The notes: generated from the letters alone by a model not told the origin. A DNA stretch of 64,000 bases from an uncultured virus (IMG/VR IMGVR_UViG_3300005823_000001) (IMGVR_UViG_3300005823_000001), one strand, 5' to 3'; counted from the stretch's first letter, positions 14,237 to 46,236 are shown. Numbers and translations: made by a program.

Positions 14237-15483
14237 CGTCTCGACTTAGGGATACTCATAACCTGCTCTACTAGCGCCGGTAGGGGCTTGAGAACCTCGC
14301 TCCATGTACGCTGAGTAGCCCATTCTATCCCCTTCTGGCGCTTCTCCCACCACCTAGTACGGCCATTCTTGACATCCTGGTAGATAAGGTTAAGCCATTG
14401 GGCCGTTTCATCTACGTTAGGAGGCAAGTATTCTATAGAAGCGATGAGGTTAATACGGTGAAGGCCCCTTATAAGCCAACCGCCATGTACCACTTCAGCA
14501 ACAGCCGTATTAGCCGGTGCCAAAACCGGACACCCTGCTGCCTGGGCCTCATGCATAGGTAGCCCATATGCCTCGCCGCCGGTAGTGCTGAAGTATATGT
14601 CAGCAAGGTTGTACAGCATATTGAGATTGGTTTGGCTAGTTGCTTTCCAAGCCGTATTATAACCGGAGGTCATGATTATACGGCCCTCAGGGTAATCCCT
14701 AGCATATACATCCAGCATATCCTCGAAATTCCAGCCAAAGTAGTCATCATAGCTGGTGTGGGCATATAGGTAAGCGTCTTGGGCTCCTGATATGTCTAGG
14801 AATTGCTTAAAGGCCTGGAAGCTAAGAGGCCACTGTTTTCTATACTCGTTACGGTCACAACGGAAGGCTATAAAGGCATCCTCCGGCATGCCTATCTTAG
14901 CCCTTAGCGCATTACGCTCCTCTAGCGTTTTCCAGGTAGTATGGAACCTCGTTGGCTCATAGCCATGAGGTATAACGTGTACCTTCTCTGGCGGTACTGG
15001 ATTGCGCTCACATAGTATACGCTTGCCCCAATCGCTGAATACTACTGTAGCATCGGCTCGCATAGGGCCAGACGCCCACCAGCGAGGGAATAGCTCGCTC
15101 TCAAAAGCTACAAAGCCTATAGTAGGGAAGTTTTTGAATTGAGGCGAACGCTGCCAGCGAGCACTATAACCGGCCAAGTCATTTACGAATAGTATCAGGT
15201 CTGGCCGAATAGCCTTGACCATCTTAGGCAGTAGGACATGGCCCCAGAGGTCTATCTGACCATCCTCTCCCGCCATAGGCTTAGGAGCCGGATTCCAATA
15301 CCTATATGGATACCGGTCGTGGTCAGGACAGTTACCGTCCCAGTTAAGAGCTAGGACATGTATATCGAATTCGTCTTTGAATAGGTCTAATACGTTCCTC
15401 ATTACATTGGCGAATCCGGTATGCATATTCGGAGCATCGCCACATGCAATAAGTACCGGCTTCTTCCTCTTGCGAGTGGTCAT
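14218..15483 (-). CDS. Glycosyltransferase, GT-B fold (GT4-like)
   Basis: GDAP..TGFA N-terminus, VIPHG, RNEYRK, EAYGLPMHEAQAAGCPV (EX7E) motif. Confidence 0.9.
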   Translation of the reverse strand: MTTRKRKKPVLIACGDAPNMHTGFANVMRNVLDLFKDEFDIHVLALNWDGNCPDHDRYPYRYWNPAPKPMAGEDGQIDLWGHVLLPKMVKAIRPDLILFVNDLAGYSARWQRSPQFKNFPTIGFVAFESELFPRWWASGPMRADATVVFSDWGKRILCERNPVPPEKVHVIPHGYEPTRFHTTWKTLEERNALRAKIGMPEDAFIAFRCDRNEYRKQWPLSFQAFKQFLDISGAQDAYLYAHTSYDDYFGWNFEDMLDVYARDYPEGRIIMTSGYNTAWKATSQTNLNMLYNLADIYFSTTGGEAYGLPMHEAQAAGCPVLAPANTAVAEVVHGGWLIRGLHRINLIASIEYLPPNVDETAQWLNLIYQDVKNGRTRWWEKRQKGIEWATQRTWSEVLKPLPALVEQVMSIPKSRRWRGKA

Positions 15484-23752: not shown

Positions 23753-25416
23753 ACTACCTCCCGCTTGGCCCCGTTGCCGCCTATTACATTCCCTAGGTCA
23801 CGCATAGCATTTACGGCCCTGCTTACCTGAGCCTGAGCATTGATAAGAGCCGGTGCCGCCGGTATCTCTTCGCCCTCTGGATACCACCTAGTTATCATCT
23901 CGTCTATATTATTGGCTCCTATCGCTGTTAGCGCAAGAGCAGCCAAATCCTTAGTAGCCTCGCCGGTAGTGCCGAATTTATCCATCACCATACTAACGGC
24001 CTCTACCATAGCCTTCATATCTTCCTGTACAAGAGGTGGGAAGTCTACATCTATAAACGGATTGACCTCGCCATAGGAGTAGGTGCGGTCTATAATCCGG
24101 CCATCGTCTCCTACGGTGTCCTGGTACTTGCCCCCCTTAAGCGCACCGGCCTCAATAGCCTTCCATAGGCTGTAGGTATGGAAGAAGGATAATGTGCTAT
24201 TCCATAGCTGCTGCCACTCTAGGAAGCCTCTGAATACAGGGAAGTTCATCGCCCTCGCCGTAGCTAGGTTAGCATCGCCACCCTCGCCAAACCAGTGTAT
24301 AGGAAGACTTACACCGGCCCCTAGCGCCATGAGTATCATGCGGGCATCCTCTACGGCTTGAGTAGCGCCGGTGTCGCCCCTAGTCCACTGGTAGCTTACG
24401 TTCTCAGGTGTACTAAGAATGGAACCGCTCACCGGCGGTATACGTACACTTGTCTCGCCTATGTTAACCGTCTTGCTGGCTATACCCTTGCTGATAGCAG
24501 CAGTCATATCCTGTGACGTACCCTTGACCTTGCGCTGCCAAGCTATAGCGGCTGCTGCCCTATTGATGGTTACACGGTCTTCCATAAACTGTAAGAATTG
24601 CCGTATCCAATCACGGATAGTCCATAGCTCGCTCAGACCGAAATGGCCTACCTTGTTAATAGCGACGTGGTATATCCGCATGGAGTCGTCTAGCATAGCG
24701 CGAGTAGTCGCATTTTGGTTAAACCATTTCTTATCTACTTTATCCTGTTCCACATTAAGGTTCAGCCAACTAGGAATATATGTAACTGCTCCCTTCTTGG
24801 CGTCCGGCTCCCAGGTGCCAGCAGATAGGTTATACTTACGAGGCTGCCGTTGTCGCCTGTAATATAGCGGCTTACGCTGGTCTTCCGGATCGGTAATTAC
24901 ATCCACTATCTCCTCAGGTGGTATAGAGCGTACCTTGATGTGGCCATCCTTACCGGCGAACATACCAAAGAATAGCTCGCCGTCCGTCCATAGCTCATCG
25001 CAGCGAGCTACCATAGCCTGATGCGTGGTAAGCTCTAGCTGGTTATCTATGTCTTTCCAGAAGGCCTCTATAATCGGCTGCACCCGCTCCTGGTCGGCGG
25101 CCCTCCAAGTAACACCGGCCCCAAATGTATACCGGCATACAAGCTTGGCTGCATGCTTAGCTAGCGGATTTGTATGGCGCAATCGCCGTAGCCGGTTAAG
25201 CATAGGTAGCTTATTACCAGGAGGCATACCGATTATCTGATGGCCACCAGAGGCCCCACTTATAAATCGGTCGGTGGCATCCTCTAGCAACCGACTAACG
25301 CTTATAAGCTGCTCCATAGCATCCGATAGACGGCCTTCCTTGTGGGCTTGTAGCATCTTGCCGACAGTGGCCGCCGGTACAGACACACCACTATCTAGCT
25401 CTATAAATTCAGACAT
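23749..25416 (-). CDS. Portal protein
   Basis: NPLAKHA...YTFGAG, DGELF, IPPEEIVDVITDPED, FGLSEL, NLATA, IDVDFPPL; synteny. Confidence 0.9.
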   Translation of the reverse strand: MSEFIELDSGVSVPAATVGKMLQAHKEGRLSDAMEQLISVSRLLEDATDRFISGASGGHQIIGMPPGNKLPMLNRLRRLRHTNPLAKHAAKLVCRYTFGAGVTWRAADQERVQPIIEAFWKDIDNQLELTTHQAMVARCDELWTDGELFFGMFAGKDGHIKVRSIPPEEIVDVITDPEDQRKPLYYRRQRQPRKYNLSAGTWEPDAKKGAVTYIPSWLNLNVEQDKVDKKWFNQNATTRAMLDDSMRIYHVAINKVGHFGLSELWTIRDWIRQFLQFMEDRVTINRAAAAIAWQRKVKGTSQDMTAAISKGIASKTVNIGETSVRIPPVSGSILSTPENVSYQWTRGDTGATQAVEDARMILMALGAGVSLPIHWFGEGGDANLATARAMNFPVFRGFLEWQQLWNSTLSFFHTYSLWKAIEAGALKGGKYQDTVGDDGRIIDRTYSYGEVNPFIDVDFPPLVQEDMKAMVEAVSMVMDKFGTTGEATKDLAALALTAIGANNIDEMITRWYPEGEEIPAAPALINAQAQVSRAVNAMRDLGNVIGGNGAKREVV

Positions 25417-25943
25417 GGCCTCTTCCTCCTATTCACCTCTATCCATGCAGGTGGAAGATAACATAGCTGCCGTTTACGCATTCTAAATATAGCATGTCGT
25501 ACTGTAGAAGGGCTGCATCTAAACCGCCTAGCTAAGGCTCTCTGGCCAAAACGGTAATATAGCCGCATTACACGGAGCACTACCGGCGCATACAGACGAT
25601 TAAGCTCACGATACTGCCACATACGATAGTCTCGCCACTCTAGCATCTCTATACCATTATTGGTGCGGAATTGCGCCGGATCGAGGCCTGGTATCTCATT
25701 ACGCGCATACAAGGTACGAGTCATGGTTATATAACGCTGTTTGCTTATCTCTCTTAATAGCCCTTGAGTACAAGAGCCCTTGCCATAATATTCCCATATG
25801 CGCAAGGCGGCCTCTTGAAAAGCGTCTTCAGCATCCTCAGGTGTGCTACCTCTCGCTATGAGGAGGCCCATAACCTCACACTTAGTATGGTTGAATTCGT
25901 CTACCGATAATCCTAGGTATTTCATTCGTCTGCTCCTAGCCAA
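25401..25943 (-). CDS. ECF/sigma70-like factor
   Basis: Region-2 motif EDAEDAFQEAALRIW; C-terminal HTH (ALARRFRCSPSTVRHAIFRMR). Confidence 0.7.
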   Translation of the reverse strand: MARSRRMKYLGLSVDEFNHTKCEVMGLLIARGSTPEDAEDAFQEAALRIWEYYGKGSCTQGLLREISKQRYITMTRTLYARNEIPGLDPAQFRTNNGIEMLEWRDYRMWQYRELNRLYAPVVLRVMRLYYRFGQRALARRFRCSPSTVRHAIFRMRKRQLCYLPPAWIEVNRRKRPCLNL

Positions 25944-27684: not shown

Positions 27685-28731
27685 CTATACTAAATCCAGA
27701 CGCATCCCATCACGTATAAATACCTGCTGTATTATCTCGTTGCGCTTGTTCCATACACAACGAGGGCATTTATCTAGCTCCTCTTTACGCATCATCCGGC
27801 CTATAAGGGCCAGATGCTCCTCTGAGTACCAAATATCTTCAAAGGTCGCTCCCTGAGCGTAGCCGCTGCCGTATTTCAGGTCTGTCCGGTCTTGGCAGAG
27901 AGCGAATTCGCCGGTAGCCGTTAAGCAGGTGCCGGTCAAGTTAGCTCTGCACCTATCATAGGTACGTGGTGTCCAGTAGCCCTCAAATTTCTCTGTAATA
28001 GCAAAGACATCTACGTTATCTCCGCACTCTGCCTGAGCCCGCATACTGAGCACCCTGGCCCGCTCCATCACCGCGTGTACTGCCACGTCCTGCTGCTTGT
28101 CATACCAGAACGCAGGCCTGATATGTACAAAGTCTACCCCACATTCAACTGCTAACCGGCAGAAGACTGGTATATCCTCTACGTTCTCAGGACATACCAC
28201 GAAAGATAGACCTATATCCTGACGCTTGACCTTGGCCGCATCCTTGATATTCTCTATTATGCGCTTCCAATCGGTCGTATGGCCGCTATTGATTAGCTGG
28301 TGTGTCTCAGGCATGCCCGCGTTGAGGCTCACCCTCAGGTAGTCCACCGCCTTAGCATACTCCGGTGTAAGAAAAGAGCCGTTAGTAGATAGTGCCACGC
28401 TCATGCCTAACTCGTTAGCTAGCTGGCATGCCTCCAAGGTATGTACATTAAGCAAGGGCTCACCGCCGCCGGAGAAGTGTATCAGCCTAGCATCCGTCCT
28501 GGCCGCGTCATTAACGGCCCGTAGTAGAACATCAGCTGGTAGCTGAGATAGTGTATCCTGTTCGCCGTTCTGCCTAAACATACACCAGCTACAGTGTTGA
28601 TTACAGAAATTAGTAGGGTAGATATGCCAGTCTATAGGGAAGGGCAAATCTCCCCGTACTATGGCCTCTAACCGGTCTGCATAGGCTAGTAGTTTAAGGC
28701 TATTGAACCTATGATACGGGCTATGTGGCAT
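27685..28731 (-). CDS. Radical SAM enzyme with SPASM/twitch domain
   Basis: CNQHCSWC, FSGGGEPL, STNG; C-terminal C...G...LC...CPRC. Confidence 0.92.
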   Translation of the reverse strand: MPHSPYHRFNSLKLLAYADRLEAIVRGDLPFPIDWHIYPTNFCNQHCSWCMFRQNGEQDTLSQLPADVLLRAVNDAARTDARLIHFSGGGEPLLNVHTLEACQLANELGMSVALSTNGSFLTPEYAKAVDYLRVSLNAGMPETHQLINSGHTTDWKRIIENIKDAAKVKRQDIGLSFVVCPENVEDIPVFCRLAVECGVDFVHIRPAFWYDKQQDVAVHAVMERARVLSMRAQAECGDNVDVFAITEKFEGYWTPRTYDRCRANLTGTCLTATGEFALCQDRTDLKYGSGYAQGATFEDIWYSEEHLALIGRMMRKEELDKCPRCVWNKRNEIIQQVFIRDGMRLDLV

Positions 28732-29407
28732 TTAATAGTATTCTCCTACTTGGCCCAAACTTGGCCGCTAGCCTCCTACAGTCTAATAGGTATCCTTCCT
28801 TAAATAGATTCCAGTTAGCGTTGAAACGGGCTCCCCAATCGGCTAGGTGGCGCTTAGTAGCTGTCTCGTGGTGGTAGGCCTTGAGCGGCACGTACACAAC
28901 ATTGTAGATATGCCGCTCTGCCTCTAGGCAAAATGCTACATCCTCCCACTGATACCCTGGCCACTCAGGGAAGCGCATACCAATATCGAATAGCTCGGAT
29001 TTGAAGTAGGATAACGAGGTGGTAATATAGGCTACGTAAGAAGGGCTATCGCTGCCACTGAATATATGGCCCGCTCCACCTTCATCACTTACCCAGCCGC
29101 CGTCATGCTGTAGGCCGCCGCTAGGGTAGTATAACTTGAAGCCGAATATATGCCCGTAGGGTAGGTAGCGCTCAAAGCCTTCAAACGTCTCAGGTAGTAG
29201 CTGTACATCATCATCTATAATAATGGCGTCTCGGCCCTCTACCCGCTGCTCTAGGCACTTATTGATGGCCTGTCCCCATCCTATTCGCTCCCCGCATGTG
29301 ATGAGGTTGTATGGCCAAGGCAAATGATGTAGGGAGTTTGCGGTCAAGTCTCCCATATGGCCCAGCGTCGGCATAATGACGTCTATCACCGGTGCGCCTC
29401 TAGCCAT
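28721..29407 (-). CDS. Glycosyltransferase family 2 (GT-A)
   Basis: IDVIMPT, IIDDD (DxD), KLYYPSGGLQHDGG, WEDVAFC, YHHE. Confidence 0.9.
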   Translation of the reverse strand: MARGAPVIDVIMPTLGHMGDLTANSLHHLPWPYNLITCGERIGWGQAINKCLEQRVEGRDAIIIDDDVQLLPETFEGFERYLPYGHIFGFKLYYPSGGLQHDGGWVSDEGGAGHIFSGSDSPSYVAYITTSLSYFKSELFDIGMRFPEWPGYQWEDVAFCLEAERHIYNVVYVPLKAYHHETATKRHLADWGARFNANWNLFKEGYLLDCRRLAAKFGPSRRILLNAT

Positions 29408-29991
29408 AGGTGAGTCTCGTAAGCCGGATCGTCTTCCTTATAGTTAGGGTGCCGTATTATGTTGGCCTCGTAGCCATAGGCCCTGAGTAGGCGTTGACAC
29501 CGCTCGGCATTTTCCCTATTGTGAATCTCTACCAGGATTTGAGCTAGGCCATTAAGGAGCCCTCCGGCCCCTACCAGCACATCGTACTCAGCACCCTCTA
29601 CGTCTATTTTGAGGAAGTCTAGCTGGCCATCTATCAGCACCTTATCTAGCGGCACCGTGTAGACGTACATTTTGCCTACCGGCTGGCCCCAATCCGGCCC
29701 CGCTGCTGGCCAGATGGAGGTATGGATAGTCTTGGGGTGTAGGTGGAGTAGCCGGAATCCAGGCGTACTACCGCAAGCCATGTTGTACACGTCCACATTC
29801 TCCGGTACGTCCGCTAGAAGCTCCCTAAGGGCCAGAGGCCCAGGCTCAAAGGCCAGCACCCGTCTGAAGGTAGCAGCTAAATCTATACTGAAGGCCCCTA
29901 CGTTGGCCCCTACGTCTATAGCCACATCGCCGGACTCCGGTATGTAAGGCAATAGCCACGGCTCCCAGCGTTCTATGCGACTATACACCAT
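29386..29991 (-). CDS. FkbM-family methyltransferase
   Basis: IDVGANVG, AFEP, LDFLKIDVEGAE, VEIH. Confidence 0.92.
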   Translation of the reverse strand: MVYSRIERWEPWLLPYIPESGDVAIDVGANVGAFSIDLAATFRRVLAFEPGPLALRELLADVPENVDVYNMACGSTPGFRLLHLHPKTIHTSIWPAAGPDWGQPVGKMYVYTVPLDKVLIDGQLDFLKIDVEGAEYDVLVGAGGLLNGLAQILVEIHNRENAERCQRLLRAYGYEANIIRHPNYKEDDPAYETHLWLEAHR

Positions 29992-30613
29992 TACCTCCGG
30001 TATGCTTGATGGCTATATCGTTAGCCGTCCTCAAAGCCTTCTGTAGTTCACGCTGTGTAGCTATAAACTTCTGCCGCTCAGCAGGGTCAGTAATAAGGTC
30101 AGCCATGCTACTAAGGTCTAGCTTGCTCGCCGCCTCGCTATCACTGCCGCCGCCTAGCATAACCGTTGCCACCTCGACACAGAGCCGGAGGCCCTCTAGC
30201 AGGCCCGCAAAGCTAAGGTCATCCGGTGCGTCCATCATCTTAGACCGCATGGTACGTATGACTAGCGGTAGTGTCTGGCCCCATAGCGCCTTCTCAAATA
30301 TGCTCTTTAGCTGGCCTATCCCCATCTTGTCTATATCGTCTTCGCTTAGGCCCGAATCCCGCTTCCTAGTCTTGGCCCTGGCATACACGTCTACGTCGGC
30401 CAGATGCTTGATAAACCGCCGGTGGAAATCCATGCCGTCATTACCAGGCCGCCGGTCGCCTAGCTGTACCATGTACTCCAATATGTCATGGTTACCGGCC
30501 CCGCTTACCAGCATCGCATCTATATCGTCCTTATGCGGACTCTTACAGATGGGGCAGACGGCCTTGTGCCGCACTACTCGAATTCTTGTTTTCTTATCTA
30601 ACCCCTCCATCAT
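29981..30613 (-). CDS. Putative terminase small subunit
   Basis: CPICKSPHK..ID.ML..G HTH-like N-terminus; first gene of the packaging operon. Confidence 0.6.
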   Translation of the reverse strand: MMEGLDKKTRIRVVRHKAVCPICKSPHKDDIDAMLVSGAGNHDILEYMVQLGDRRPGNDGMDFHRRFIKHLADVDVYARAKTRKRDSGLSEDDIDKMGIGQLKSIFEKALWGQTLPLVIRTMRSKMMDAPDDLSFAGLLEGLRLCVEVATVMLGGGSDSEAASKLDLSSMADLITDPAERQKFIATQRELQKALRTANDIAIKHTGGNGV

Positions 30614-30740: not shown

Positions 30741-31292
30741 TTAGGCAGTCCATGTATTAGGAAGAGGCTGCTTACCTCTACCATTCTGCCGTAGCCTCCA
30801 TGCCATCACTCTTATACTCTCCTCACTCACCTTATACCGCTTGGCGCAATACCGTGTCCCCTTGCTGTAATATGCCAACAGGAATCCCCACACTGTAGGA
30901 TGGAATAGACGCTTAGCCGCCGCTAGAGCCATCTCCTTATCCAGCCGCTCCTCTAACTCCTCTATCCCACCGTTAGTACTCCTATGGTAAGCCTCTTCAA
31001 GTGATACGTGTATTGTCTGCTCCCTCAGTCGCCGGTGCTGGTCAATAACAAGATGGTCACCTACTATCCAGATAAGATTCCAAGGGGCATAAGCACCGTT
31101 GTACCCGTAAGCTTGTAGCACCGCCTCTAACGTGTCCTGCCATAAGTCTTCAGCCGCTTCAAAGCTCTTACCATACGTGATTGCCTTACCTATGAACCTA
31201 TGGCGCAAGTCTCGGTACATCTCTGGAGACAGTTGCCGGAGGGCTCTACCACTCATGGTATAGTTATAACACCCCACCAACAAATAGGCCAT
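30741..31292 (-). CDS. ECF/sigma70-like factor (paralogue of 25401-25943; start may be 31256)
   Basis: AAEDLWQDT region 2, IDQHRR, C-terminal HTH (CAKRYKVSEESIRVMAWRLR). Confidence 0.75.
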   Translation of the reverse strand: MAYLLVGCYNYTMSGRALRQLSPEMYRDLRHRFIGKAITYGKSFEAAEDLWQDTLEAVLQAYGYNGAYAPWNLIWIVGDHLVIDQHRRLREQTIHVSLEEAYHRSTNGGIEELEERLDKEMALAAAKRLFHPTVWGFLLAYYSKGTRYCAKRYKVSEESIRVMAWRLRQNGRGKQPLPNTWTA

Positions 31293-33580: not shown

Positions 33581-34207
33581 CTATCTCGCCCTACATTCTA
33601 TCTGTACTTCCTTTAGGGCCTTAAGCGGGTTAGCGGCCTGAGCTATTCGGCGGCCTACGATAATGGCATCAGTTAGCCCCTCAGACGCCTCTATATAAGT
33701 CCCTATTCTAGCATGGTCATTACGCTGGTTGCCATAAGGCCTTATAGCTGTACATATGTGTATTCCTAGAGGCCACCGGTTACGTACTTGCCTTATTTCT
33801 CGTAATGTCGTTATAGTGCCATCTAGCTTGGCCGCTCTACAGGTATCAATGGCCTCTTCTATCTCCTGCCCATTAGTAAGCAAGCTAGATAGCTTGAGAA
33901 CGCCAAACACCTTGACCGGCCCAGCAGTATCCTTAATGCCTGTAAGCATAGCACGGCCACCAGAGGCATGAGCCGTCATGCCCCATACTGCATCACTTTG
34001 GACGATTCTCATAGTGGCCTTCATAGCCTCATAAAGGATATCGCACATCTTGATATCGTAGAGCACCTGAAACCCCATATTGTGTACAGAGTCGGCTGCT
34101 AATAGGCCCATTTCAGCTATTAGGGGCAAACCCACTTTAATAGTACGTACCTGACCTTTTAGCTGTTCAGCCTGTGTTATCGAGCTTACCGCTACAATGA
34201 TTTCCAT
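33581..34207 (-). CDS. pyrF: Orotidine-5'-phosphate decarboxylase homologue (divergent)
   Basis: IKVG, DIKMCDI (DxKxxD), TAHASGGRAML, AIRP, IIVGRRI..A.NP. Confidence 0.85.
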   Translation of the reverse strand: MEIIVAVSSITQAEQLKGQVRTIKVGLPLIAEMGLLAADSVHNMGFQVLYDIKMCDILYEAMKATMRIVQSDAVWGMTAHASGGRAMLTGIKDTAGPVKVFGVLKLSSLLTNGQEIEEAIDTCRAAKLDGTITTLREIRQVRNRWPLGIHICTAIRPYGNQRNDHARIGTYIEASEGLTDAIIVGRRIAQAANPLKALKEVQIECRAR

Positions 34208-34571: not shown

Positions 34572-35039
34572 CTACTGGTGTTGATTGAGCCCATAAAGGG
34601 CTATACAGGCTGCATCTGCCATATGATGACTTTCCTCTAGGCCTCTACCGAATAGCAATGGATGATTCGCTGCTACCTTTTGAGCCATCTCCTTACTAGC
34701 TCGGCCATGCCCTAATATGACTTTTTTCCAGGTATTCGCCGGTACTAGATGCACCTCTTTGGTGAATACGAAAGATATAGCTAATGCGCCTCCTATTACC
34801 TTAGCGAGCTTGTGAGCAGCCCCATAGGAGCGGTAAGCGCTGTCTTCTATGTAAATCTTCTTTGGGCCATCCCAATCATGTAGCAGGTGATACCACTCAG
34901 GCAGAAGTTGGCTATACCGCTCAAACCACTCCTTGCTCATCCTGGCTAGTATCATTCCGCTAGAGTGGAATGTAGCAGTATCCTCGTTGAGGGCCACATA
35001 ACATATGCGGTAGGTATCTGAGTCTACTCCTAATATCAT
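34572..35039 (-). CDS. ruvC: RuvC-like Holliday junction resolvase
   Basis: ILGVD, IYIED, WKK.ILGHGRASK, ADAACIA. Confidence 0.88.
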   Translation of the reverse strand: MILGVDSDTYRICYVALNEDTATFHSSGMILARMSKEWFERYSQLLPEWYHLLHDWDGPKKIYIEDSAYRSYGAAHKLAKVIGGALAISFVFTKEVHLVPANTWKKVILGHGRASKEMAQKVAANHPLLFGRGLEESHHMADAACIALYGLNQHQ

Positions 35040-35536
35040 TTCGTTTCCTCCAAGGCTGTTATACGCCCATTGTAGGCCGGTAGGTAGTTAGGTGCTAAGT
35101 ATCTTAGGTTCGTGACCGCTACGAACCTGTTATCTAGCATCTCTAGCAAAATAGGCCGCACGTCGCTGTACAGAAGTTGCCCGTTTCCGCACCCTACTCG
35201 TGGCAGCACAACCGTATGCATTTTGTAGGCGTCAGCTAGCTCTATTAGCTCCCTACAGGAGCAGGCAATTAGCTCTAATTTAGCCGGTTGATACCATTGG
35301 TACTTAACAGGGAAGGCTATGAGCCGTTGCTCTAATGACAGGACGCCCACAGAAGTCCCTACAGCCTTGATGAGCCTTCCTAAAGCTATATCTAGGCTTG
35401 GGTAACGCTCTAAGGCTTGTAGTGCTACCCCTTTACCCATAATACCGGCTCCGTTAGCCTTGACGGTGCCATTAGTAGGGATTACCCGCCATACCGCCTC
35501 GTCAATCTCCCATATATCAGCTACTATCTCTTTCAC
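35036..35536 (-). CDS. Macro domain (ADP-ribosylglycohydrolase-like)
   Basis: DIW..VIPTN...MGKGVALQ..RYP, FPVKY.W, LPRVGCGNGQL. Confidence 0.88.
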   Translation of the reverse strand: MKEIVADIWEIDEAVWRVIPTNGTVKANGAGIMGKGVALQALERYPSLDIALGRLIKAVGTSVGVLSLEQRLIAFPVKYQWYQPAKLELIACSCRELIELADAYKMHTVVLPRVGCGNGQLLYSDVRPILLEMLDNRFVAVTNLRYLAPNYLPAYNGRITALEETK

Positions 35537-36219: not shown

Positions 36220-36456
36220 CTAAGGCCGCTCATCCTCTTCCCCTTGTACTAGGTGAATCTTGTGACCGGTTGCCTCTGCTAGCTCGTTTGCGAATACCTC
36301 AGGTTCGCACATCAGCTTAGCTAGCACATTTACCTCATTTACACCCTCTATCACCCTAACTACGCAGAGATATAGTCCCTTTTTCCTTATATCAGATGGT
36401 AGGGTGCTAATAAGCAATTTAGGCCTAGGAGCCGGAGCACCGCCGTTACCACTCAT
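36220..36456 (-). CDS. Hypothetical protein
   Basis: Coupled to the pyrE-like stop. Confidence 0.55.
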   Translation of the reverse strand: MSGNGGAPAPRPKLLISTLPSDIRKKGLYLCVVRVIEGVNEVNVLAKLMCEPEVFANELAEATGHKIHLVQGEEDERP

Positions 36457-36950
36457 AGCATTGTATCTCCTGTTCCCCTGGCCACCTTAGTAACAGCACA
36501 TAGCGGGCATTCCTTAGCTTCCCATAGAGGCAAATTACGAGCATCTACCAGGTAACCGAATGGAATATCACTAGGAGGCATGCCCCTAAGGAACATCACC
36601 CAAATAGCATCCGGCCTTATCTTGTGCTCATTATAGAAAGCCCTAACGCTACGGCCCGTAGTCCACACATCATCTACTATTACCGTAGGTACATCTGGCG
36701 TAGGAAAGCGTAATGGATGTAGGCCACTTCTCATACGTTTCACATTCATCTTACCTAGGAGCCACTCGCCGCCGGTCGGCACCCCTAGACAACCATATGG
36801 GAACATCACATCCGGCGGTAGATACATAAGCCCAAAGGGTATATCACGATAATGCAAATCCTCTATGACTATCTTGACCGATGTATGCATACCACTGGCT
36901 AGTATGAAATGCCCAAACTTGAGATAAGATAAGCTATGTAGGTCTAGCAT
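36453..36950 (-). CDS. pyrE: Orotate phosphoribosyltransferase homologue (short, divergent)
   Basis: GHFILASGMH hood motif, PRPP motif VIVDDVWTTGRSV, C-terminal W...ECPLC. Confidence 0.8.
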   Translation of the reverse strand: MLDLHSLSYLKFGHFILASGMHTSVKIVIEDLHYRDIPFGLMYLPPDVMFPYGCLGVPTGGEWLLGKMNVKRMRSGLHPLRFPTPDVPTVIVDDVWTTGRSVRAFYNEHKIRPDAIWVMFLRGMPPSDIPFGYLVDARNLPLWEAKECPLCAVTKVARGTGDTML

Positions 36951-39526: not shown

Positions 39527-40453
39527 CTACTCTCCTTGCGCCATAAGGCGCTCAAAATCAGTAGGGTCATCTAGGAAGTGCTGGCGTAGCGCCGGTTTAC
39601 CATGATACTTCTCACCCTGCCATACATAGAATGGTGCCTTGCCACCAAATAGGCCCTTAGTTATGGCCCAATCTATCCCTACTGCTATCTCATCGAATAG
39701 GCCCTGGAAGTGAAACGGCAGATTGCATTCCTGATACGGCTGAGCTAGCTTATTCTTAGCGGTCATGGCATGGCAGATAAAACCTATGCGCCGGTTGCCG
39801 TCCTTAATCCAGTCAGCCCTACTAACCCTCAACATAATCATTGCTACCTGGCGTACAACCTTGCCGCCTGGTAATTGCTCGCCTGGAAACCCTATCTGAG
39901 TGCGAGTCTGGTTAAGAGCCATTATAGCAGCCTTTTGGTTCTTAGCGTTTAGCCGCAGGAGGCCCCTAGTTATAAGGCGAGCATGTGCTCCTATAAAGGC
40001 CTTTTCAGCCGATTCCTCTAGCATCACTGAAGGCACCAGAGCCGGTAACGAGTCGATTACCACCATATCAAAATACGGTAGCACATCGGCTATAATGTCA
40101 ATGGCCTTTTCACCGGTCGGTGGCTGAGATACTATGAGGTCATTGGTATTCACTCCTAGCTGCTCAGCCCATTCTTGCTGATACGTATATTCCGCATCCA
40201 CAAATAGGGCTCGCTTACCATTCTTCTGATTATGGGCTATCCACTTAAGGGCCAACGTAGTCTTGAGCGAGGAATAGTCGCCATACACGATGCTTATACG
40301 GCCTGCCGGTATGCCGCCGCCTAGAATATCGTCTAGTAGAGGCATGCCAAAAGGCAGAAGGCTTATATGCAAAGTCGGGTCATCCCCGCGTACCATGTCG
40401 CCCTTATCCATTAGGTCTGATACTTCTTTAGGTAGGTGCTTATCGTTTGTCAC
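39527..40453 (-). CDS. recA: RecA-like recombinase
   Basis: LD.ILGGGIPAGRI..YG..S.LKTT, FVDAE, VSQP.TGE, VIDS, NQ.R, KNK. Confidence 0.93.
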   Translation of the reverse strand: MTNDKHLPKEVSDLMDKGDMVRGDDPTLHISLLPFGMPLLDDILGGGIPAGRISIVYGDYSSLKTTLALKWIAHNQKNGKRALFVDAEYTYQQEWAEQLGVNTNDLIVSQPPTGEKAIDIIADVLPYFDMVVIDSLPALVPSVMLEESAEKAFIGAHARLITRGLLRLNAKNQKAAIMALNQTRTQIGFPGEQLPGGKVVRQVAMIMLRVSRADWIKDGNRRIGFICHAMTAKNKLAQPYQECNLPFHFQGLFDEIAVGIDWAITKGLFGGKAPFYVWQGEKYHGKPALRQHFLDDPTDFERLMAQGE

Positions 40454-41402
40454 GATTCAACCACTCCAAGAAATGCTGTCCTGCCTTTATCCAATCCGGA
40501 TACATCCAAGAGTACCGTATAGAATTGGGGCTAGGGTAAGGGTAGGCCCTCTCCTCTCGATACCACCTGAGGAAGTCCTCAGCAAAGCATAGCGCCGGAT
40601 GGTCAGTTACGATGCCCTGCCCGCTAAATATGTTCCATAGCTCATCTAGGAGTAGGTCATGTAAGGCTGTGCTAATAGGTGGCAAGAATAGCCGTCTACC
40701 AGGAGGCATCTTAGGTAGGGGCTCATCCCAAGCATGTACCATCCGGTTTGTAATATCTCCTCCTGGCCCATGTAGGTAAGCATGCAGGCTGTTGCTAATA
40801 TGAGTCTGAGTGCCTATATGCACTCCTACTCTGGCCGCTATGAATTCCTGCAATATACCGAATTCTGGCAAATTGACCGCAAATAGGCCCCAATGTACAT
40901 CGTTGCTACGGCAGAAAACGGTCATATGCAGCTTTCCTTGACGGATTTTGAAGGTAGCCACCATATTACAAGGCGGGTCTTTCGTATTGGCGAATAAGTC
41001 TTTGGGCCTGGATATAAGCAGGAAGGCTCGCCGGTCGCTGCTATCCTGTCGGAGCCGGTTGACAACCTTCTTTAGCTGGCCCTTGATACGGTAGCCGTAG
41101 GCTCCATAGAATATCTCGCCGTCATCACTGAAATCAGCTATGCGCTTGTTATACGGCAACAGGGCTGCTACATCGTTCCGGCCTGCCAATACCCATAGAG
41201 ATTCAGATAGTGCCACCCAAGGGTTAGCATACCGGCCTGGAACCATAGTTACGTGCTCCCAAGGCTGCCGGATAACTGTAGCCACGTTGAGGGCCTCGAT
41301 AGTAGGGCCATACTGAGTAGTTACCCCATAGCCTTCTTTCAGGATATGGTTAAGGACAGGCCGATAGGCCTCATGCGCTGTATCTGCTTCTATTACTTTC
41401 AT
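40440..41402 (-). CDS. Thymidylate synthase homologue, probable dUMP hydroxymethylase
   Basis: ESLW.LAGRND, YGAYG.R, DRRA, KDPPCN, RSND..WG...N, SLHAY. Confidence 0.8.
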   Translation of the reverse strand: MKVIEADTAHEAYRPVLNHILKEGYGVTTQYGPTIEALNVATVIRQPWEHVTMVPGRYANPWVALSESLWVLAGRNDVAALLPYNKRIADFSDDGEIFYGAYGYRIKGQLKKVVNRLRQDSSDRRAFLLISRPKDLFANTKDPPCNMVATFKIRQGKLHMTVFCRSNDVHWGLFAVNLPEFGILQEFIAARVGVHIGTQTHISNSLHAYLHGPGGDITNRMVHAWDEPLPKMPPGRRLFLPPISTALHDLLLDELWNIFSGQGIVTDHPALCFAEDFLRWYREERAYPYPSPNSIRYSWMYPDWIKAGQHFLEWLNRDKR

Positions 41403-42340
41403 GGTGCTACTACCTTGAATAGTGGCACCTCATAGGCTTCCTCAGCATCGAAATTCATCCTAGGCCTACCCTTGCTATGCTGATGGCTAACGTATTTGCC
41501 AAACTCACACACGCTGTGTATAATGTTGCCTAGGCTTAACGTCTCGCCCTTCCACCAATGCATATCCAAGCCCAAAGCCTCCATGCAATACGGCTGTACG
41601 TCCCTGAGGGCTTGAGCATATGCTAGCTGCTGCTTAATACGCCGCGTCTCAAATAGGTATTGTAAGCCAAGCCTAGCCCCTGGCCCGATATGAGCCCAAG
41701 TGTCAGGGTCATATGGGAGCATATCTACCATCATCAGGTCTAGACAAACCTCGTAGGCTGTAAACCCACCTATGCCATACATGCCTTGTATCTTCTGCCA
41801 TGTATCCTTAAAATCGCCTACACCGTCCTTAAGCTGCGCCTGTAGGTATATTACTATTTGTGGGTAGGTGAATAGGGCCTGCTCACAGATATACTCAAAC
41901 CGGTCTATCCAGCTAGCCATGTGCACCGGCTGAGGCATGCTCATATGAGCATTAGGATACTGTAGCTCGCCTTCCTCTCTTAGGCGTCGTAGCTCGGCAA
42001 AGAAGCGCTCTCTATACTGCTGGTCGCCGTAGAACAAATGGTACTTAGGTACGTAGCCTACCGCATCCCAAAAGTCTATATTGTTCATCAGCCGGTAGAG
42101 AATCGTACGCCATAACAGGTCTGGTAGGCCATCGGCCTTAGGCGCTAGATTTTGCACATACCATTGGGTGCCTTTATCTAGCTCCCTATATACATTGACA
42201 AAACGGTAATGGGCTAGTATAGGGTCTTTCGTCCAAGGTGGAGGTTGCTTGAGTAGCCACCGCCGATTCCAGATGCTATGACGCTCGTATACAAACTGCC
42301 AGAATTGCTCTACTGTACTAGGCACACGGATATATGGCAT
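41399..42340 (-). CDS. 5-hmdU DNA kinase-like protein (aGPT-Pplase1 helical family)
   Basis: FVYERH.IW.RR...PWTKDPIL..YRF.NVYRELDKGT, HhH-like GIGGFTAYEV..DL, GPGA..GL, CEFGKY. Start at 42340 (TAATG overlap). Confidence 0.85.
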   Translation of the reverse strand: MPYIRVPSTVEQFWQFVYERHSIWNRRWLLKQPPPWTKDPILAHYRFVNVYRELDKGTQWYVQNLAPKADGLPDLLWRTILYRLMNNIDFWDAVGYVPKYHLFYGDQQYRERFFAELRRLREEGELQYPNAHMSMPQPVHMASWIDRFEYICEQALFTYPQIVIYLQAQLKDGVGDFKDTWQKIQGMYGIGGFTAYEVCLDLMMVDMLPYDPDTWAHIGPGARLGLQYLFETRRIKQQLAYAQALRDVQPYCMEALGLDMHWWKGETLSLGNIIHSVCEFGKYVSHQHSKGRPRMNFDAEEAYEVPLFKVVAP

Positions 42341-42681
42341 TAGGCCCGCTTCCTCCTTAACGGCGCTAGGTCTGCAAAGCACAGGTCAAGGTTGACTAGC
42401 ATACGGTCAGCTACTCTAGGTTCTATGCTCCCCTTGAGTACGCAGACCAGGATGTTGAATATGGCATCGGCTACCTCTTCTACCGCGTCCTCTACACTAT
42501 CGGCGTCCATACAGGCGTTAATGAAACGACCATCCATACGTCGCTTAGTCGTGGTGTACTCGCACTCATGGTCACGATGCCGCTCTGCTACAAGGGTCTG
42601 TAGCTCCTCGCATATCATACCCTCTGCCGGTGCTATTAGCTCTTCCGTACTAGGATATAGTCCCTCTCTGTTGTAAGGCAT
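42340..42681 (-). CDS. MazG-like all-alpha nucleotide pyrophosphatase (putative dTTPase/dUTPase)
   Basis: EDAVEEVADAIFN acidic motif; located among nucleotide genes. Confidence 0.55.
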   Translation of the reverse strand: MPYNREGLYPSTEELIAPAEGMICEELQTLVAERHRDHECEYTTTKRRMDGRFINACMDADSVEDAVEEVADAIFNILVCVLKGSIEPRVADRMLVNLDLCFADLAPLRRKRA

Positions 42682-42682
42682 C

Positions 42683-45646
42683 CTAATCCTCCATACGCTT
42701 AAAGTATTCCTCACGTGCCCAAGGCCTATTAGGGTCAGATGGGCTATCTACTGAGATAGTTAGCCGCTCTTTCTGATATGGCCGGTCATCCATAAACGTC
42801 TCATGACGGCCCTTAGCCTCCCATACCTCAGGCCGGTCTTGCGGGTAATGCCAATCACTAGGTGGCTTGGCTACTATAACACGGAAGCTACCTAGGGCAT
42901 TGGTAAGCTCAATATAGTGCTTACCGCTCTCCTGTATTACATCGTTTGTAGGTATGCCTCGTATGATGTAACCAGGTTTACCCCAAATAGGAGGCGCATC
43001 TTCCAGGTATGTCACCTTAGATAGGAAGCCCTCTTCTAGTAGCTCTATAGGAAAATCAAGCGCTTGTTCAAAGGCCGCCGGTTTAATTGCTGTACCTGGG
43101 AATGCTCCGGCTGCTGCCAGCGCTCGGATAGCGCCGATATTACAACTCTTGCGCTCAACTCTATTACGCAAATCCTCAGCATCTTTTATAGGCCGAACAG
43201 CCTTCAGCGCTTTATAAGCACCGTAGCCGATACCGCTGATATTGCCGATGCCAATACGTATTCGGCCATCGCTACGCACCCTAGTACGATACCAGCTATC
43301 GTTGATATCCGGTATGAGCCATTCCATCGCCCAATTTGCGCTCTCTAATATGGCCCATAGCCGGTCACCCTTATTCTTAAGGGTATCAAATACAGCGGCA
43401 TAGTAGTGGCTAGGATAATGCTCCTTATACCACATCATCCGATAGGCCAGACCAGCATAGATAACAGCATGCGCACGGTTAAAGTTGTAACCAGCACCGG
43501 CCCTAACTGCCCGCCATAGGCCCTCGCCTCTTATGCCATTGGCCTTGCAACCAGCTAGGAATTGGGCCTCTAGCCGGTCAAGGGTATCGCCCTCGAAATG
43601 CTTAATGGCCTCTTTGACGGTATCTTGCTCAATATCATCGAAACCGGCACACCGTTTACATATCTCCATCACTTGTTCCTGGTATATAACCAGGCCGCGT
43701 GTAGGCTCCAATATATCCCGCAAATCCGGATAGGCTCTTAGAAGCTCGGCTGAGCCATCCTTATAGGCCTTAACAGCACCGTAGGCCCCTGGCCGCACCA
43801 TAGCATTAATAGCCACTACATCGTTGAAATCCTGTACCTCTTTAAGCTGATTGATTACAAAACGAGCAGCAGTACCCTTCATCTGAAATAGGCCACATAC
43901 AAGGCCGTGGCTAAAGCTCTCATATACCGCCTTATCATCGTATTCATTCGGTACAATGGTGCCAGCACCGGCCTCTATCGCCTGTAGGGAGTCAAGTGTT
44001 TCTACTCCCAAAATATCCAGCTTAAATAGGCCTAGCTCCTTAAGGCTGTACATATCGAAATGCGTAACGTAGTGTACATCCTTACTAGCCTTATCAGCTA
44101 TCCGCATTAACGGCACCTCGTACTCCAAAGGCCTCTGTGTGTCCGTTAACACGATACCGGCTGCATGCCTACCTTGATTGCCTATGAGCCCATTCCATTG
44201 CTCTAACCGCTTGGCCGCCTCTTTTCCTATTACTGATTCGGCTGGCTTATACCAGTCGCCATCCCACTTCTCAGGTAGGCGTTTGCTAGCTTGGCGCTTT
44301 TGCTCCTCAGACATGCCTTTACACGTCATTACAAAACGAGCGGCCCCTCTAGGCCCGTAGGTGCTAAAGGTGACTATCTGACGGCCCTGGTAACGCTGCT
44401 TTATATGAGCTAGCACCTTCCCTCTTTGACGGCTACTTACGTCCAGGTCAAAGTCAGGTATAGTAAGCCTAGCTGGATTCACGGCCCGCTCGAATAGGAG
44501 CTTATACTTAATAGGGTCTTCAGCCGTGATACCTAACAGCCAAGATATGAGACTACCGGCCATGCTACCTCTGCCGGTTACCGGTATATTTTCCTTCCTA
44601 CACCACTCCACTATCTCATGCGTGAGCAGATAGGATTGGGCTATGTGTGGTGCTGTGCCAAGTACCGACATCTCCCGCTCGTATCGCTTCTGGTATTCCT
44701 TCGGTGCCGATTCTACCCAATCGCGTAGCATATTGCCTATGGTATCACAAGGGTCATCGACAACCGCCGGTACATGCCACATACGCCTATCCACCTCAGG
44801 TATCTCCAAGTCGCAAAGCTCTGCTACCTCCAAGGTGTTATCTAAGGCCTCCTGGGGTATTGATGCTTTCCTGGCCTGTATACGCATCTCTTCCTCGGTT
44901 TTGAAGTATACACCCCTAGCATCGAATACAATGAAATACGGCCCTCGCTTGGCTGTCTCCGGTGCTGCCGCTATAAGGTTGTGATACCAGTCTTCCCAAT
45001 CCGCGCTATGGAAATGGCAGTCGTTAGTCATAACGAGACGGCTACCGGTATCCTTGGCCAGCCGGAACAGCCCTTCTATAAAGGTATCCTGCTTGCTCTC
45101 ATAGGGCAAACCTACCCAGCTATCGTGGTGCATCACCTCTATGAATACCGCTTTAGCGGCCTCTTGTAGCTTCTTGACGTATTGGACGGCCCTATCGTAT
45201 TCATCGTTTAAGATGTACCGGCCTGCTCTGCCTCCTATGCAGCCGGTGAGCACTACCCAATTTTCCATAGGGCTTCTTATGCCCTTTTTCTTGTTACCTG
45301 TCAGGTCGGCTAGCTTGACACGCGGACGCTTATAGAAATTCTTGTGAGCCGCCGTCGTTATCTCTATAAGGTCGCGGTATCCTCGTTGGTTAGCCGCTAG
45401 TACTGTAATATGAGCGTTTTGCTGATAACCATCACCCTCCAGGTATAGCTCTGAGCCAATGATAGGCTTTATACCCGCCTTTTTAGCTAGGGTGTAAAGC
45501 TCAATAGCACCGGCCATATTACCGTGGTCGGTCAAGGCCAAGGCCGAATGCCCGTCAGCCTTAGCTAGGTCTACGTACTGAGCTACAGTAGCTCGGCCAT
45601 CGCCTATTGAATATTGACTATGAGTGTGTAAGTGGCAATAGCTCAT
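42683..45646 (-). CDS. dnaE: DNA polymerase III alpha subunit (family C)
   Basis: PHP HLHTHSQYS/TDHG, GRGS.AGSL, PDFDLD, HAAG, KLDILG, YQEQ, FNRAHA. Confidence 0.97.
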   Translation of the reverse strand: MSYCHLHTHSQYSIGDGRATVAQYVDLAKADGHSALALTDHGNMAGAIELYTLAKKAGIKPIIGSELYLEGDGYQQNAHITVLAANQRGYRDLIEITTAAHKNFYKRPRVKLADLTGNKKKGIRSPMENWVVLTGCIGGRAGRYILNDEYDRAVQYVKKLQEAAKAVFIEVMHHDSWVGLPYESKQDTFIEGLFRLAKDTGSRLVMTNDCHFHSADWEDWYHNLIAAAPETAKRGPYFIVFDARGVYFKTEEEMRIQARKASIPQEALDNTLEVAELCDLEIPEVDRRMWHVPAVVDDPCDTIGNMLRDWVESAPKEYQKRYEREMSVLGTAPHIAQSYLLTHEIVEWCRKENIPVTGRGSMAGSLISWLLGITAEDPIKYKLLFERAVNPARLTIPDFDLDVSSRQRGKVLAHIKQRYQGRQIVTFSTYGPRGAARFVMTCKGMSEEQKRQASKRLPEKWDGDWYKPAESVIGKEAAKRLEQWNGLIGNQGRHAAGIVLTDTQRPLEYEVPLMRIADKASKDVHYVTHFDMYSLKELGLFKLDILGVETLDSLQAIEAGAGTIVPNEYDDKAVYESFSHGLVCGLFQMKGTAARFVINQLKEVQDFNDVVAINAMVRPGAYGAVKAYKDGSAELLRAYPDLRDILEPTRGLVIYQEQVMEICKRCAGFDDIEQDTVKEAIKHFEGDTLDRLEAQFLAGCKANGIRGEGLWRAVRAGAGYNFNRAHAVIYAGLAYRMMWYKEHYPSHYYAAVFDTLKNKGDRLWAILESANWAMEWLIPDINDSWYRTRVRSDGRIRIGIGNISGIGYGAYKALKAVRPIKDAEDLRNRVERKSCNIGAIRALAAAGAFPGTAIKPAAFEQALDFPIELLEEGFLSKVTYLEDAPPIWGKPGYIIRGIPTNDVIQESGKHYIELTNALGSFRVIVAKPPSDWHYPQDRPEVWEAKGRHETFMDDRPYQKERLTISVDSPSDPNRPWAREEYFKRMED

Positions 45647-46236
45647 CTGTCATAACCGCCATATCTATCTCGTATCTCTGCCTTAAGCGGTTGGAGCCAA
45701 TCATAGCCTAGCTCCTCTATCCAATCTAGGCTTCGCATACGTATTACAGGCATAGCCTTGTTACCTAGTAATTCCTCTTCCATCGCGTATAAGGTGATAC
45801 TGAGCAAATCAGCTACATGTACTATCTGGCCCTCTATGCCATCACCCTTGGCCTTAAGCCAATGGTTACTTAGCATATCCGCTACCTCGTCAGGTAGGAT
45901 AGCACAAATCCGGTCACGTACAGCCTCATTACCAGCAACCCGCAAGAGAGAATCTAGCTCAGGTGTCTCACGTTTAGCTAGGCTATTTACATCACCGGTA
46001 AAGCTCTCTTCTATATCGTGCATGAGCGCTTTGCCTAGGACTAGATGCACATCAACTATATACCCCTTGCCGATGAGGTACAACGTAAGCATATAGGCAT
46101 TGAGAGCCACGTAGTAGCTGTGCTCGGCTACCGATTCGTCACGGCAACGAGGGTAAGTAGCAAAACGGGTTATGTACCGGAGCCGCCTGGGGTAGCCATA
46201 CAAGAATTTGAGGAAGGGCTTGATAGACAGGCTCAT
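45643..46236 (-). CDS. HD-domain 5'-deoxynucleotidase (YfbR-like)
   Basis: RF....ESVAEHS, LMHDIEE..TGD, AD.L. Confidence 0.9.
   Translation of the reverse strand: MSLSIKPFLKFLYGYPRRLRYITRFATYPRCRDESVAEHSYYVALNAYMLTLYLIGKGYIVDVHLVLGKALMHDIEESFTGDVNSLAKRETPELDSLLRVAGNEAVRDRICAILPDEVADMLSNHWLKAKGDGIEGQIVHVADLLSITLYAMEEELLGNKAMPVIRMRSLDWIEELGYDWLQPLKAEIRDRYGGYDR

Follow-up and report, generated by a model that had tools for sequence, protein, structure and literature searches.

What does a phage make of thymidine in its DNA when it encodes a candidate deoxyuridylate (dUMP) hydroxymethylase and an aGPT-Pplase clade 1 protein, together with neither a detectable 5-hydroxymethyldeoxyuridine (5-hmdU) DNA kinase nor a detectable amino-acid:DNA transferase (ADDT)? 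The question is raised by a stretch of 64,000 nucleotides (the window) of the uncultured virus IMGVR_UViG_3300005823_000001, in which the genes concerned form a cluster at positions 39,527 to 46,236. The window covers almost the entire genome of a novel tailed phage from marine-sediment metagenomes. Its cluster is most likely a module that replaces thymidine by 5-hmdU, and it has neither of the two canonical post-replicative enzymes; it belongs to a widespread kinase-less class and is not categorically new. Judging from sequence comparisons and a structure model, we give about even odds (a probability of roughly 0.5) to the reading that the 5-hmdU module is followed by a kinase-independent step in which the clade 1 protein would replace the hydroxyl of 5-hmdU by another group.

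The probable thymidine-replacement cluster

An earlier note, made by a model without database searches, had described a translationally coupled row of genes for an HD nucleotidase, DnaE, a MazG-like protein, an aGPT-Pplase1-family protein and a thymidylate synthase (TS) homologue. The five open reading frames (ORFs) were found exactly where the note had placed them, in that order and all on the minus strand, and their junctions fit translational coupling: the HD/DnaE and clade 1/TS gene pairs each overlap by a 4-base ATGA. The TS gene overlaps in turn by 14 bases with a RecA gene. The members of the operon are as follows (lengths in amino acids (aa); database matches with their E-values).

45643-46236, minus strand: YfbR-like HD 5'-deoxynucleotidase, 197 aa; Pfam YfbR-like 7.6e-24 and HD_3 6e-15, NCBIfam 5'-deoxynucleotidase 5.9e-14
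42683-45646, minus strand: DnaE family C DNA polymerase, 987 aa; Pfam PHP 5.5e-40, DNA_pol3_alpha 6e-49, finger 7e-27, HHH_6 2e-11
42340-42714, minus strand: small conserved protein, coupled to the downstream gene; ORF of 124 aa, with a likely start at Met12 (42681) that gives 113 aa
41399-42382, minus strand: aGPT-Pplase clade 1 protein, 327 aa, possible start Met15 at 42340; Pfam PF18723 HMUDK_hel 2.6e-48, residues 23-303
40440-41402, minus strand: TS-fold dUMP hydroxymethylase candidate, 320 aa; Pfam Thymidylat_synt 3.4e-16 (modest), phrog_5131 4.7e-67
39527-40453, minus strand: RecA/UvsX-like recombinase of the same operon, kept downstream in related loci; Pfam RecA 6.8e-46

Both motifs reported earlier for the TS homologue, KDPPCN and RSNDVHWGLFAVN, are present. 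In an alignment that included T4 gp42, the patterns KD-x-PCN and RSND-x-x-WG-x-x-x-N were common to the window protein, PaMx11 gp51 and Goe10 gp29. The asparagine at the specificity position, which had been taken to indicate dUMP, aligns with the asparagine of PaMx11 gp51 and of SPO1-type gp29, whereas the T4 dCMP hydroxymethylase has aspartate there, and the window protein carries the C-terminal extension beyond the TS core that the dUMP enzymes have. Identity was 43% with PaMx11 gp51 and 37% with SPO1-type gp29, which is annotated as deoxyuridylate hydroxymethyltransferase. Among solved structures the top match was the CMP 5-hydroxymethylase MilA (1.8e-16), with true thymidylate synthases at 3e-9 or weaker. 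These comparisons support the grouping of the TS homologue with the SPO1/PaMx11 dUMP hydroxymethylases, as a candidate hydroxymethylase of the dUMP type. Because it is such a candidate, the replacement of T by 5-hmdU that the earlier note had proposed is the best reading of the module. SPO1 itself, in which 5-hmdU fully takes the place of T and undergoes no further change, has the same type of enzyme, with the same motifs and extension; the window differs from SPO1 in carrying aGPT-Pplase1. According to an excerpt of Lee et al. (2018, PMC5889632), aG/PT-PPlase seemed to be confined to hypermodifying phages in a comparison of seven genomes, that of SPO1 among them.

The HD protein matches (E 1.1e-17) those HD genes of related loci that follow a TS homologue, and it has PaMx11 gp52 as its counterpart; by homology it is a probable dTMP/dNMP-depleting enzyme of the pre-replicative pathway. 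In DnaE the PHP, Pol III alpha core, finger and helix-hairpin-helix (HhH) domains are all present in order, which bears out the family C polymerase claimed before. Its best relatives in cultured phages are just 29-31% identical (50,697 phage records; best 31%), and the DnaE of related viral contigs that we term Group A is 31% identical to that of the window.

The label 'MazG-like', given earlier to the small ORF between the DnaE and clade 1 genes, gained no support: the window protein has no Pfam family, none of 40 aligned homologues matches MazG, and the comparison with a genuine MazG domain by hhalign gave a probability of 0.3%. Regarding the EExxE and ExxD motifs of MazG that were sought, the protein contains an EEVAD stretch. 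It has 54 homologues at E<=1e-3, and the gene call in the protein collection is also of 113 aa. A weak hint came from NCBIfam hisI/PRA-PH (E 0.093), and the fold matches of its AlphaFold2 (AF2) model (pLDDT 94) were generic helical hairpins, with no MazG listed among them. No homologue of the small ORF was found in the 80 related loci described below.

Regarding known systems, the cluster of PaMx11 comprises gp46 (ADDT, also called PUGT), gp47 (FAD lyase), gp48 (acetyltransferase), gp49 (kinase), gp50 (aGPT-Pplase1), gp51 (dUMP hydroxymethylase) and gp52 (HD), and it yields the base 5-AcNmdU. As in the window, aGPT-Pplase1 is followed by the TS-fold hydroxymethylase and an HD nucleotidase lies in the same cluster; gp50 and gp51 are the best cultured-phage matches of the window clade 1 protein (27%) and of the TS homologue (43%), respectively. 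The window differs in having no counterparts of gp46, gp47, gp48 and gp49, in encoding DnaE where PaMx11 has a family A polymerase, and in the small ORF, which occupies the place of the kinase.

The clade 1 protein and the missing enzymes

The assignment of the clade 1 protein to the aGPT-Pplase1 family was upheld, with an HMUDK_hel match of 165.3 bits against a cut-off of 25 bits that covers profile positions 3-277 of 281. Its reading as a 5-hmdU DNA kinase was not, as the protein has the helical HMUDK_hel domain only and no Walker A motif. (Note that the public gene call, of 229 aa from Met99, seems to be N-terminally truncated, because the Pfam match begins at residue 23.)

In 34 diverse clade 1 homologues, which are 23-33% identical to the window protein, 16 residues besides the start methionine are invariant (R34, W50, F61, N63, Y65, R66, E67, D69, R97, F207, G233, P234, G235, C292, E293 and K296), a pattern that suits an enzyme; the window protein is itself counted among the 34 aligned sequences. 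Profile-profile alignment of clade 1 with 10 ADDTs by hhalign gave a probability of 76% (E 2.4e-5, about 105 columns) and placed C292 of the window protein on Cys247 of PaMx11 gp46. The latter is the proposed nucleophile, which attacks C6 and expels phosphate, in a description based on a crystal structure (excerpt of PMC11472151), and mutation of the conserved cysteine is described to abolish the activity of Pplase2 (excerpt of PMC13458397). The Pfam ADDT model weakly matches the clade 1 gene of a relative (E 0.0013); when the clade 1 profile was compared by sequence with solved structures, designed helical proteins were the only matches. The AF2 model of the clade 1 protein (pLDDT 83, pTM 0.82) was compared with 48,161 chains, of which PaMx11 gp46/PUGT (8z2m) matched best, with a Z of 9.8 and an rmsd of 4.5 Å over 223 aligned residues. 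By the search tool's own note, helical folds can attain such a Z by chance, and values near 10 are not decisive for them. The next matches were the queuine-salvage protein DUF2419 and HhH DNA glycosylases. By these alignments and the model, the clade 1 protein is remotely homologous to the ADDTs and retains their catalytic cysteine; it is probably an enzyme and not an accessory of the kinase, and we propose that it would act as a Cys-dependent enzyme on a 5-substituted uracil.

The sole fused form of clade 1 that was found is a protein of the collection (P0064, 777 aa) in which HMUDK_hel is naturally joined to MazG and MazG_C domains. It ties clade 1 to nucleotide-pool enzymes, so that some clade 1 proteins may act on free nucleotides, and it offers no clue to the transferred group.

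The search of the ORFs with hidden Markov models (HMMs) of the HMUDK, ADDT and aGPT-Pplase families, which the earlier note had recommended, recovered the clade 1 protein, no kinase and no ADDT; PF18724, PF18747 and PF18748 matched none of the 84 window ORFs at E<=0.01. As that note had observed, Pfam showed no ADDT, pyridoxal phosphate (PLP) enzyme, dNMP kinase or dCMP deaminase among these ORFs, nor did it show an FAD enzyme, GNAT enzyme, uracil-DNA glycosylase (UDG), dCTP deaminase or dUTPase. The single Walker A match inside a real window ORF is that of the terminase. A phmmer search with PaMx11 gp46 and gp49 against 933 six-frame window ORFs yielded spurious short frames (best E 0.074 and 0.25, respectively), and the window had no match at E<=1, with filters off, to profiles made from the sequences of 10 kinases and 8 ADDTs that related loci encode. 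The phage thus departs from the M6/PaMx11/ViI scheme, in that it encodes no P-loop 5-hmdU DNA kinase and no ADDT. The suggestion that the base may stay phosphorylated is left without an enzyme, because no P-loop kinase was found in the window. In M6, gp51 (ADDT), gp52 (PLP decarboxylase), gp53 (radical SAM isomerase), gp54 (kinase) and gp55 lead to 5-NedU; M6 resembles the window in its 5-hmdU base, an aGPT-Pplase paralogue and radical SAM tailoring, as far as an excerpt of PMC8989533 describes it, and differs from it in that the window has no kinase, ADDT or PLP enzyme.

The kinase-less state is common and has already been noticed in print. For the phages RP13, EP_H11 and EcoM_IME92, an excerpt of a 2026 article (PMC13697223) reports an aGPT-Pplase1 and a kinase that 'could not be detected'. 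This SP15-like group, whose relatives YerA41, SP-15 and Carin-5 have glycosylated linkers on T, shares the kinase-less aGPT-Pplase1 with the window. It differs in having a UDG-fused family A polymerase, a dCTP deaminase and a dUTP diphosphatase, whereas the window encodes DnaE and none of these among its 84 ORFs; furthermore, RP13 and YerA41 required RNA-seq, whereas ordinary shotgun libraries sufficed for the DNA of the window phage to assemble.

Scanning IMG/VR with a profile yielded 398 relatives, of which the best 80 loci were kept and their ORFs called, clustered and searched with profiles. The families found in the flanks, and the number of loci in which they lie within 1.5 kb of the clade 1 gene, were as follows.

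TS homologue: flanks of 24 of the 80 loci, within 1.5 kb in 18
P-loop kinase: flanks of 15, within 1.5 kb in 8
Radical SAM related to that of the window: flanks of 14, within 1.5 kb in 8
ADDT: flanks of 11, within 1.5 kb in 10
Family of about 480 aa without Pfam match: flanks of 9, abutting the clade 1 gene in all 9
FkbM methyltransferase, confirmed by Pfam: flanks of 6, within 1.5 kb in all 6 (gaps <=7 bases)

No kinase was present in the flanks of 65 of the 80 loci; the fused or neighboring kinase to which the Pfam family name alludes is not universal in the family. Eight loci (L011, L016, L019-L023 and L028) share with the window its DnaE (31%), RecA, primase, DnaB and a 376-aa protein; seven of them have the order radical SAM/SPASM, clade 1, two small ORFs, DnaE, and L016 is cut upstream. 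In two near-complete genomes of this DnaE group a TS homologue is encoded elsewhere in the genome, no kinase was detected by PF18748 or by a custom profile whose positive controls matched, and no ADDT was detected beyond the clade 1 gene itself. The same holds for a relative, G002, that is complete with direct terminal repeats (100%): a TS homologue is present, a kinase was found by neither profile, and the only ADDT trace is the clade 1 gene. UDG-fused family A polymerases occur in all four loci that were scanned among the closest clade 1 relatives (L002, L004, L005 and L007).

Some individual loci show further arrangements. A nucleoside 2-deoxyribosyltransferase-like protein, the 480-aa protein, radical SAM/SPASM and clade 1 follow each other in the DnaE-encoding L020 (7029-10936) and L022 (6676-10894). 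In one locus of the 80 (L018, 9117-9941) the gene immediately upstream of clade 1 encodes a TET-associated glycosyltransferase, and L031 (1795-5263) and L032 have a row of genes for two paralogous ADDTs, an FkbM methyltransferase and the clade 1 protein. Neither the 480-aa family nor the flank clusters 43, 44, 49, 53, 71 and 95 have a homologue in the window by HMM or hhalign searches.

Proposed route and candidate tailoring enzymes

The route that we favor is outlined here; each of its chemical steps is inferred from the gene identities and motifs, the undetected kinase and ADDT, the homology with its conserved cysteine, and the neighborhoods in relatives. By homology, the TS-fold enzyme would convert dUMP into 5-hmdUMP and the YfbR-like HD nucleotidase would shrink the competing thymidine nucleotide pool. 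Host kinases would then provide 5-hmdUTP, which the phage DnaE would incorporate. With the HhH, glycosylase-like fold of the ADDTs, the clade 1 protein would flip 5-hmdU out of the DNA and add Cys292 to C6. The 5-substituent would be eliminated without prior phosphorylation to leave an exocyclic methylene, the same intermediate as in ADDT and TS-fold enzymes, to which a nucleophile would add. Because no kinase is available, water would have to be the leaving group, or the substrate would have to be activated otherwise. More speculatively, the incoming group might be a sugar or methyl from the enzymes of an operon that the earlier note had overlooked; it spans 27.7-30.6 kb and has a sigma-like gene on one side and the terminase on the other. 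Its genes, and the one further glycosyltransferase gene of the window, are as follows.

29981-30613, minus strand: protein of 210 aa heading the operon; no Pfam, PHROG or NCBIfam match, in the Atlas unnamed viral clusters and weak small-terminase-like leads
29386-29991, minus strand: FkbM-family methyltransferase, 201 aa; Pfam Methyltransf_21 1.1e-15, TIGR01444 3.2e-21
28721-29407, minus strand: GT-A fold, GT2-like glycosyltransferase, 228 aa; Atlas model pTM 0.88, TM 0.84-0.86 to GT2 clusters, DDD at residues 64-66
27685-28731, minus strand: radical SAM enzyme, 348 aa; Pfam Radical_SAM 1.8e-19, CNQHCSWC at residues 43-50 and a C-terminal cluster of cysteines (C261, C269, C279, C322 and C325)
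14218-15483, minus strand: GT4 (GT-B) glycosyltransferase between capsid and tail genes; Pfam Glyco_transf_4 1.4e-10, phrog_2170 1.6e-29

The Pfam match of the GT-A protein itself is weak (E 0.078), and its homologue P0009 matches Glyco_trans_2_3 at 6.8e-6 with 26.5 bits, just below the cut-off of 27 bits. GT-A, FkbM, radical SAM and GT4 are the sole candidate group-transfer enzymes in the genome. The target of GT4 is more likely to be virion proteins than DNA. The three operon enzymes are the only candidates for tailoring and would point to a sugar or methyl-ether derivative. The sugar that the earlier note had offered as an example thus has encoded candidate enzymes, which may instead serve virion glycans. 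Neither glycosyltransferase showed a relation to the families neighboring clade 1. For the operon we put a role in DNA modification at roughly even odds at best. In its most specific form, the favored route would make clade 1 a stand-alone, phosphorylation-free Cys-dependent base transferase or lyase that passes the base to GT-A, FkbM and radical SAM, so that the product would be a chemically undescribed thymine substitute bearing a sugar or a methyl ether; this form is decidedly tentative and quite unlikely.

The placement of GT4 among head-tail genes suggests glycosylated virion proteins. Two weak sigma-70/ECF-like proteins (30741-31292 and 25401-25943, both minus strand) flank the block of methyltransferase, glycosyltransferase, radical SAM and terminase genes; they may be late transcription factors encoded by the phage.

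Genome setting, alternatives and meaning

Regarding the genome as a whole, nearly all window genes lie on the minus strand, and comparison of the 84 ORFs with Pfam and PHROG identified a tape-measure protein, major capsid protein, portal and large terminase, which mark a tailed-phage genome. The replication block holds an SNF2 helicase, DnaB, primase, DnaE, RecA, a Cas4-like nuclease and a RuvC-like resolvase. No match to the cluster at the DNA level was found by blastn among the 50,697 phage records, and an exact-peptide search of viral contigs gave no close relatives. The window is probably short of at most 2,772 bases, because proteins identical to its own sit on contigs of up to 66,772 bp; the missing bases were not recovered by exact-pattern scans of viral contigs and metagenome contigs. 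Both ends of the window carry an open-ended ORF.

61073-64000, minus strand: GSATLAGVG-repeat ORF (repeats of about 20 residues) at the right end, >975 aa
1-588, minus strand: GSATLAGVG-repeat ORF at the left end, >196 aa

The codon boundaries at positions 1 and 64000 are compatible with an in-frame join across the 2,772-base gap, and if the contig is a circle of 66,772 bases the two ORFs would be parts of a single protein of about 2,095 aa, which probably serves as a fibre or decoration protein. Because they would join in this way, there is little room for further genes in the gap.

Three other genes may bear on nucleotide metabolism or thymidine. A macro-domain protein (35036-35536, minus strand) has a below-cut-off NCBIfam match (4.9e-18) to DarG, the antitoxin that acts as a DNA ADP-ribosyl glycohydrolase, and may counter DarT-type ADP-ribosylation of thymidine in DNA. 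The other two form a pyrE/pyrF-like pair:

36453-36950, minus strand: type I phosphoribosyltransferase-like protein, 165 aa; weak NCBIfam PyrR/PyrE matches (4e-4 to 4e-3) on the phosphoribosyl pyrophosphate loop, VIVDDVWTTGRS at residues 90-101
33581-34207, minus strand: orotidine monophosphate (OMP) decarboxylase-like protein, 208 aa; Pfam OMPdecase 9.3e-23, NCBIfam pyrF 1.5e-25 (below cut-off), D-x-K-x-x-D at residues 51-56

Such a pair is uncommon for a phage, and the matches of the decarboxylase in the phage database were few and of host-like appearance. Our guess is that the two proteins feed uridine nucleotides, possibly as partners, because no dCMP/dCTP deaminase or dUTPase was found among the window ORFs.

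Of the alternatives to a clade 1 transfer step, the one that survives best, somewhat unlikely in our view, is that the phage stops at 5-hmdU or at a mix of 5-hmdU and T, like SPO1, and that GT-A, FkbM, radical SAM and GT4 decorate capsid or tail proteins or host glycans. Clade 1 might then, for example, revert part of the 5-hmdU to thymine, or bind or protect modified DNA. Hypermodifying phages are described to turn 5-hmdU into either the hypermodified base or thymine, with the enzyme for the latter unassigned in the excerpt concerned (PMC8989533). The position of the operon next to the terminase and that of GT4 among head and tail genes fit this alternative, and virion modification of the kind is known: cluster O mycobacteriophages modify proteins of their capsid and tail tube by means of three glycosyltransferases and an O-methyltransferase (excerpt of PMC11600133). 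The likeness to the window, a methyltransferase and glycosyltransferases beside structural or packaging genes, is one of description, and that excerpt mentions no radical SAM enzyme.

Further observations weigh against clade 1 as the transferring enzyme or against the operon as its partner. Foldseek returned weak glycosylase matches only for the clade 1 model, and at the site of the gp46 metal ligand Glu243 the window protein has isoleucine, with glutamate in 3 of 7 aligned sequences. No activity has so far been shown for any clade 1 protein. In M6 lysate reactions, the kinase and the ADDT were necessary and sufficient for amino-acid transfer and the clade 1 paralogue gp55 could be omitted (Lee et al., excerpt of PMC8989533), so that gp55 is dispensable for glycine transfer in vitro, a result that also favors an end point at 5-hmdU. 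The negative results for kinase and ADDT cover the 64-kb window, and up to 2.8 kb of the probable 66,772-bp contig lies outside it. The sequence is present in marine-sediment and subsurface metagenome runs of at least three studies, in all of them as assembled contigs and with no RNA data set among the runs listed, and assembly from ordinary shotgun libraries is a weak argument against a very bulky, polymerase-blocking adduct.

As for the operon, it lies 11 kb from the cluster and adjoins packaging genes. Its radical SAM protein shares 22-24% identity (55-69 bits) with the radical SAM proteins encoded next to clade 1, which is similarity at family level only, and it reaches 56-87 bits against radical SAM proteins of three phage records without HMUDK_hel; no M6-like phage was matched at E<=1e-3 among the 50,697 phage records. 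The maximum-likelihood tree of the radical SAM proteins is a polytomy of long branches. A similar radical SAM gene follows the capsid gene in the complete 40-kb phage MW202801, which has neither a TS homologue nor HMUDK_hel, and is itself followed by genes for a glycosyltransferase, a dioxygenase, a methyltransferase, a NodB-like protein and a second glycosyltransferase; by its gene content this block looks like a virion or glycan module. The similarity of the FkbM protein to FkbM proteins adjacent to clade 1 is weak (HMM E 3.6e-4; tblastn 4.9e-8 to L055). Radical SAM genes just as close to that of the window thus occur in glycan-type clusters of phages that lack clade 1, which again suits a 5-hmdU end point, so that the link of the operon to DNA is not firm.

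What speaks for a transfer step over an end point at 5-hmdU is that clade 1 is strongly constrained, with enzyme-like invariant residues, that its gene is tightly coupled here to that of the hydroxymethylase and has such a gene at most 1.5 kb away in 18 of the 80 related loci, and that radical SAM, FkbM and TET-associated glycosyltransferase genes stand directly beside it in other phages.

A second alternative, that the canonical kinase and ADDT pathway is present and has escaped us, would require these genes to lie in the missing 2.8 kb or less, to be too divergent for detection, or a host kinase to substitute. The incomplete window and several unannotated ORFs would allow this, and divergent kinases can escape detection, because even the PaMx11 kinase matches Pfam HMUDK_HMUD1 just at E 0.002. 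It is nevertheless very improbable, given the little room in the gap, the empty filter-free six-frame profile searches, the lack of a canonical Walker A motif beyond the terminase, the complete relative G002 without kinase and ADDT, and the kinase-less aGPT-Pplase1 in print for RP13, EP_H11 and EcoM_IME92. That thymine simply stays, the TS homologue being an ordinary thymidylate synthase or a dCMP hydroxymethylase, is hardly credible: despite the Pfam match and a PHROG family named 'thymidylate synthase', its nearest relatives are PaMx11 gp51 and the SPO1-type enzymes, MilA is nearer than any solved TS, it has PCN where the catalytic context of TS is PCH, it scores far under the NCBIfam TS cut-offs (e.g., 85 versus 174.55 bits), and it has asparagine where T4 gp42 carries aspartate.

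The accepted scheme of thymidine hypermodification runs from kinase to ADDT to tailoring. The clade 1 paralogue, to which no activity is assigned, is encoded by every hypermodifying phage studied and is far more widespread than the kinase. The phage described here is a compact test case, as its nearly complete 64-kb genome combines a hydroxymethylase and a clade 1 protein, which retains the catalytic cysteine of the transferase, with no detected kinase or ADDT. A demonstrated action of clade 1 on 5-hmdU DNA would fill that gap and could reveal a phosphate-independent route to new DNA bases, which, if true, would bear on the resistance of phages to restriction and on enzymatic DNA labelling.

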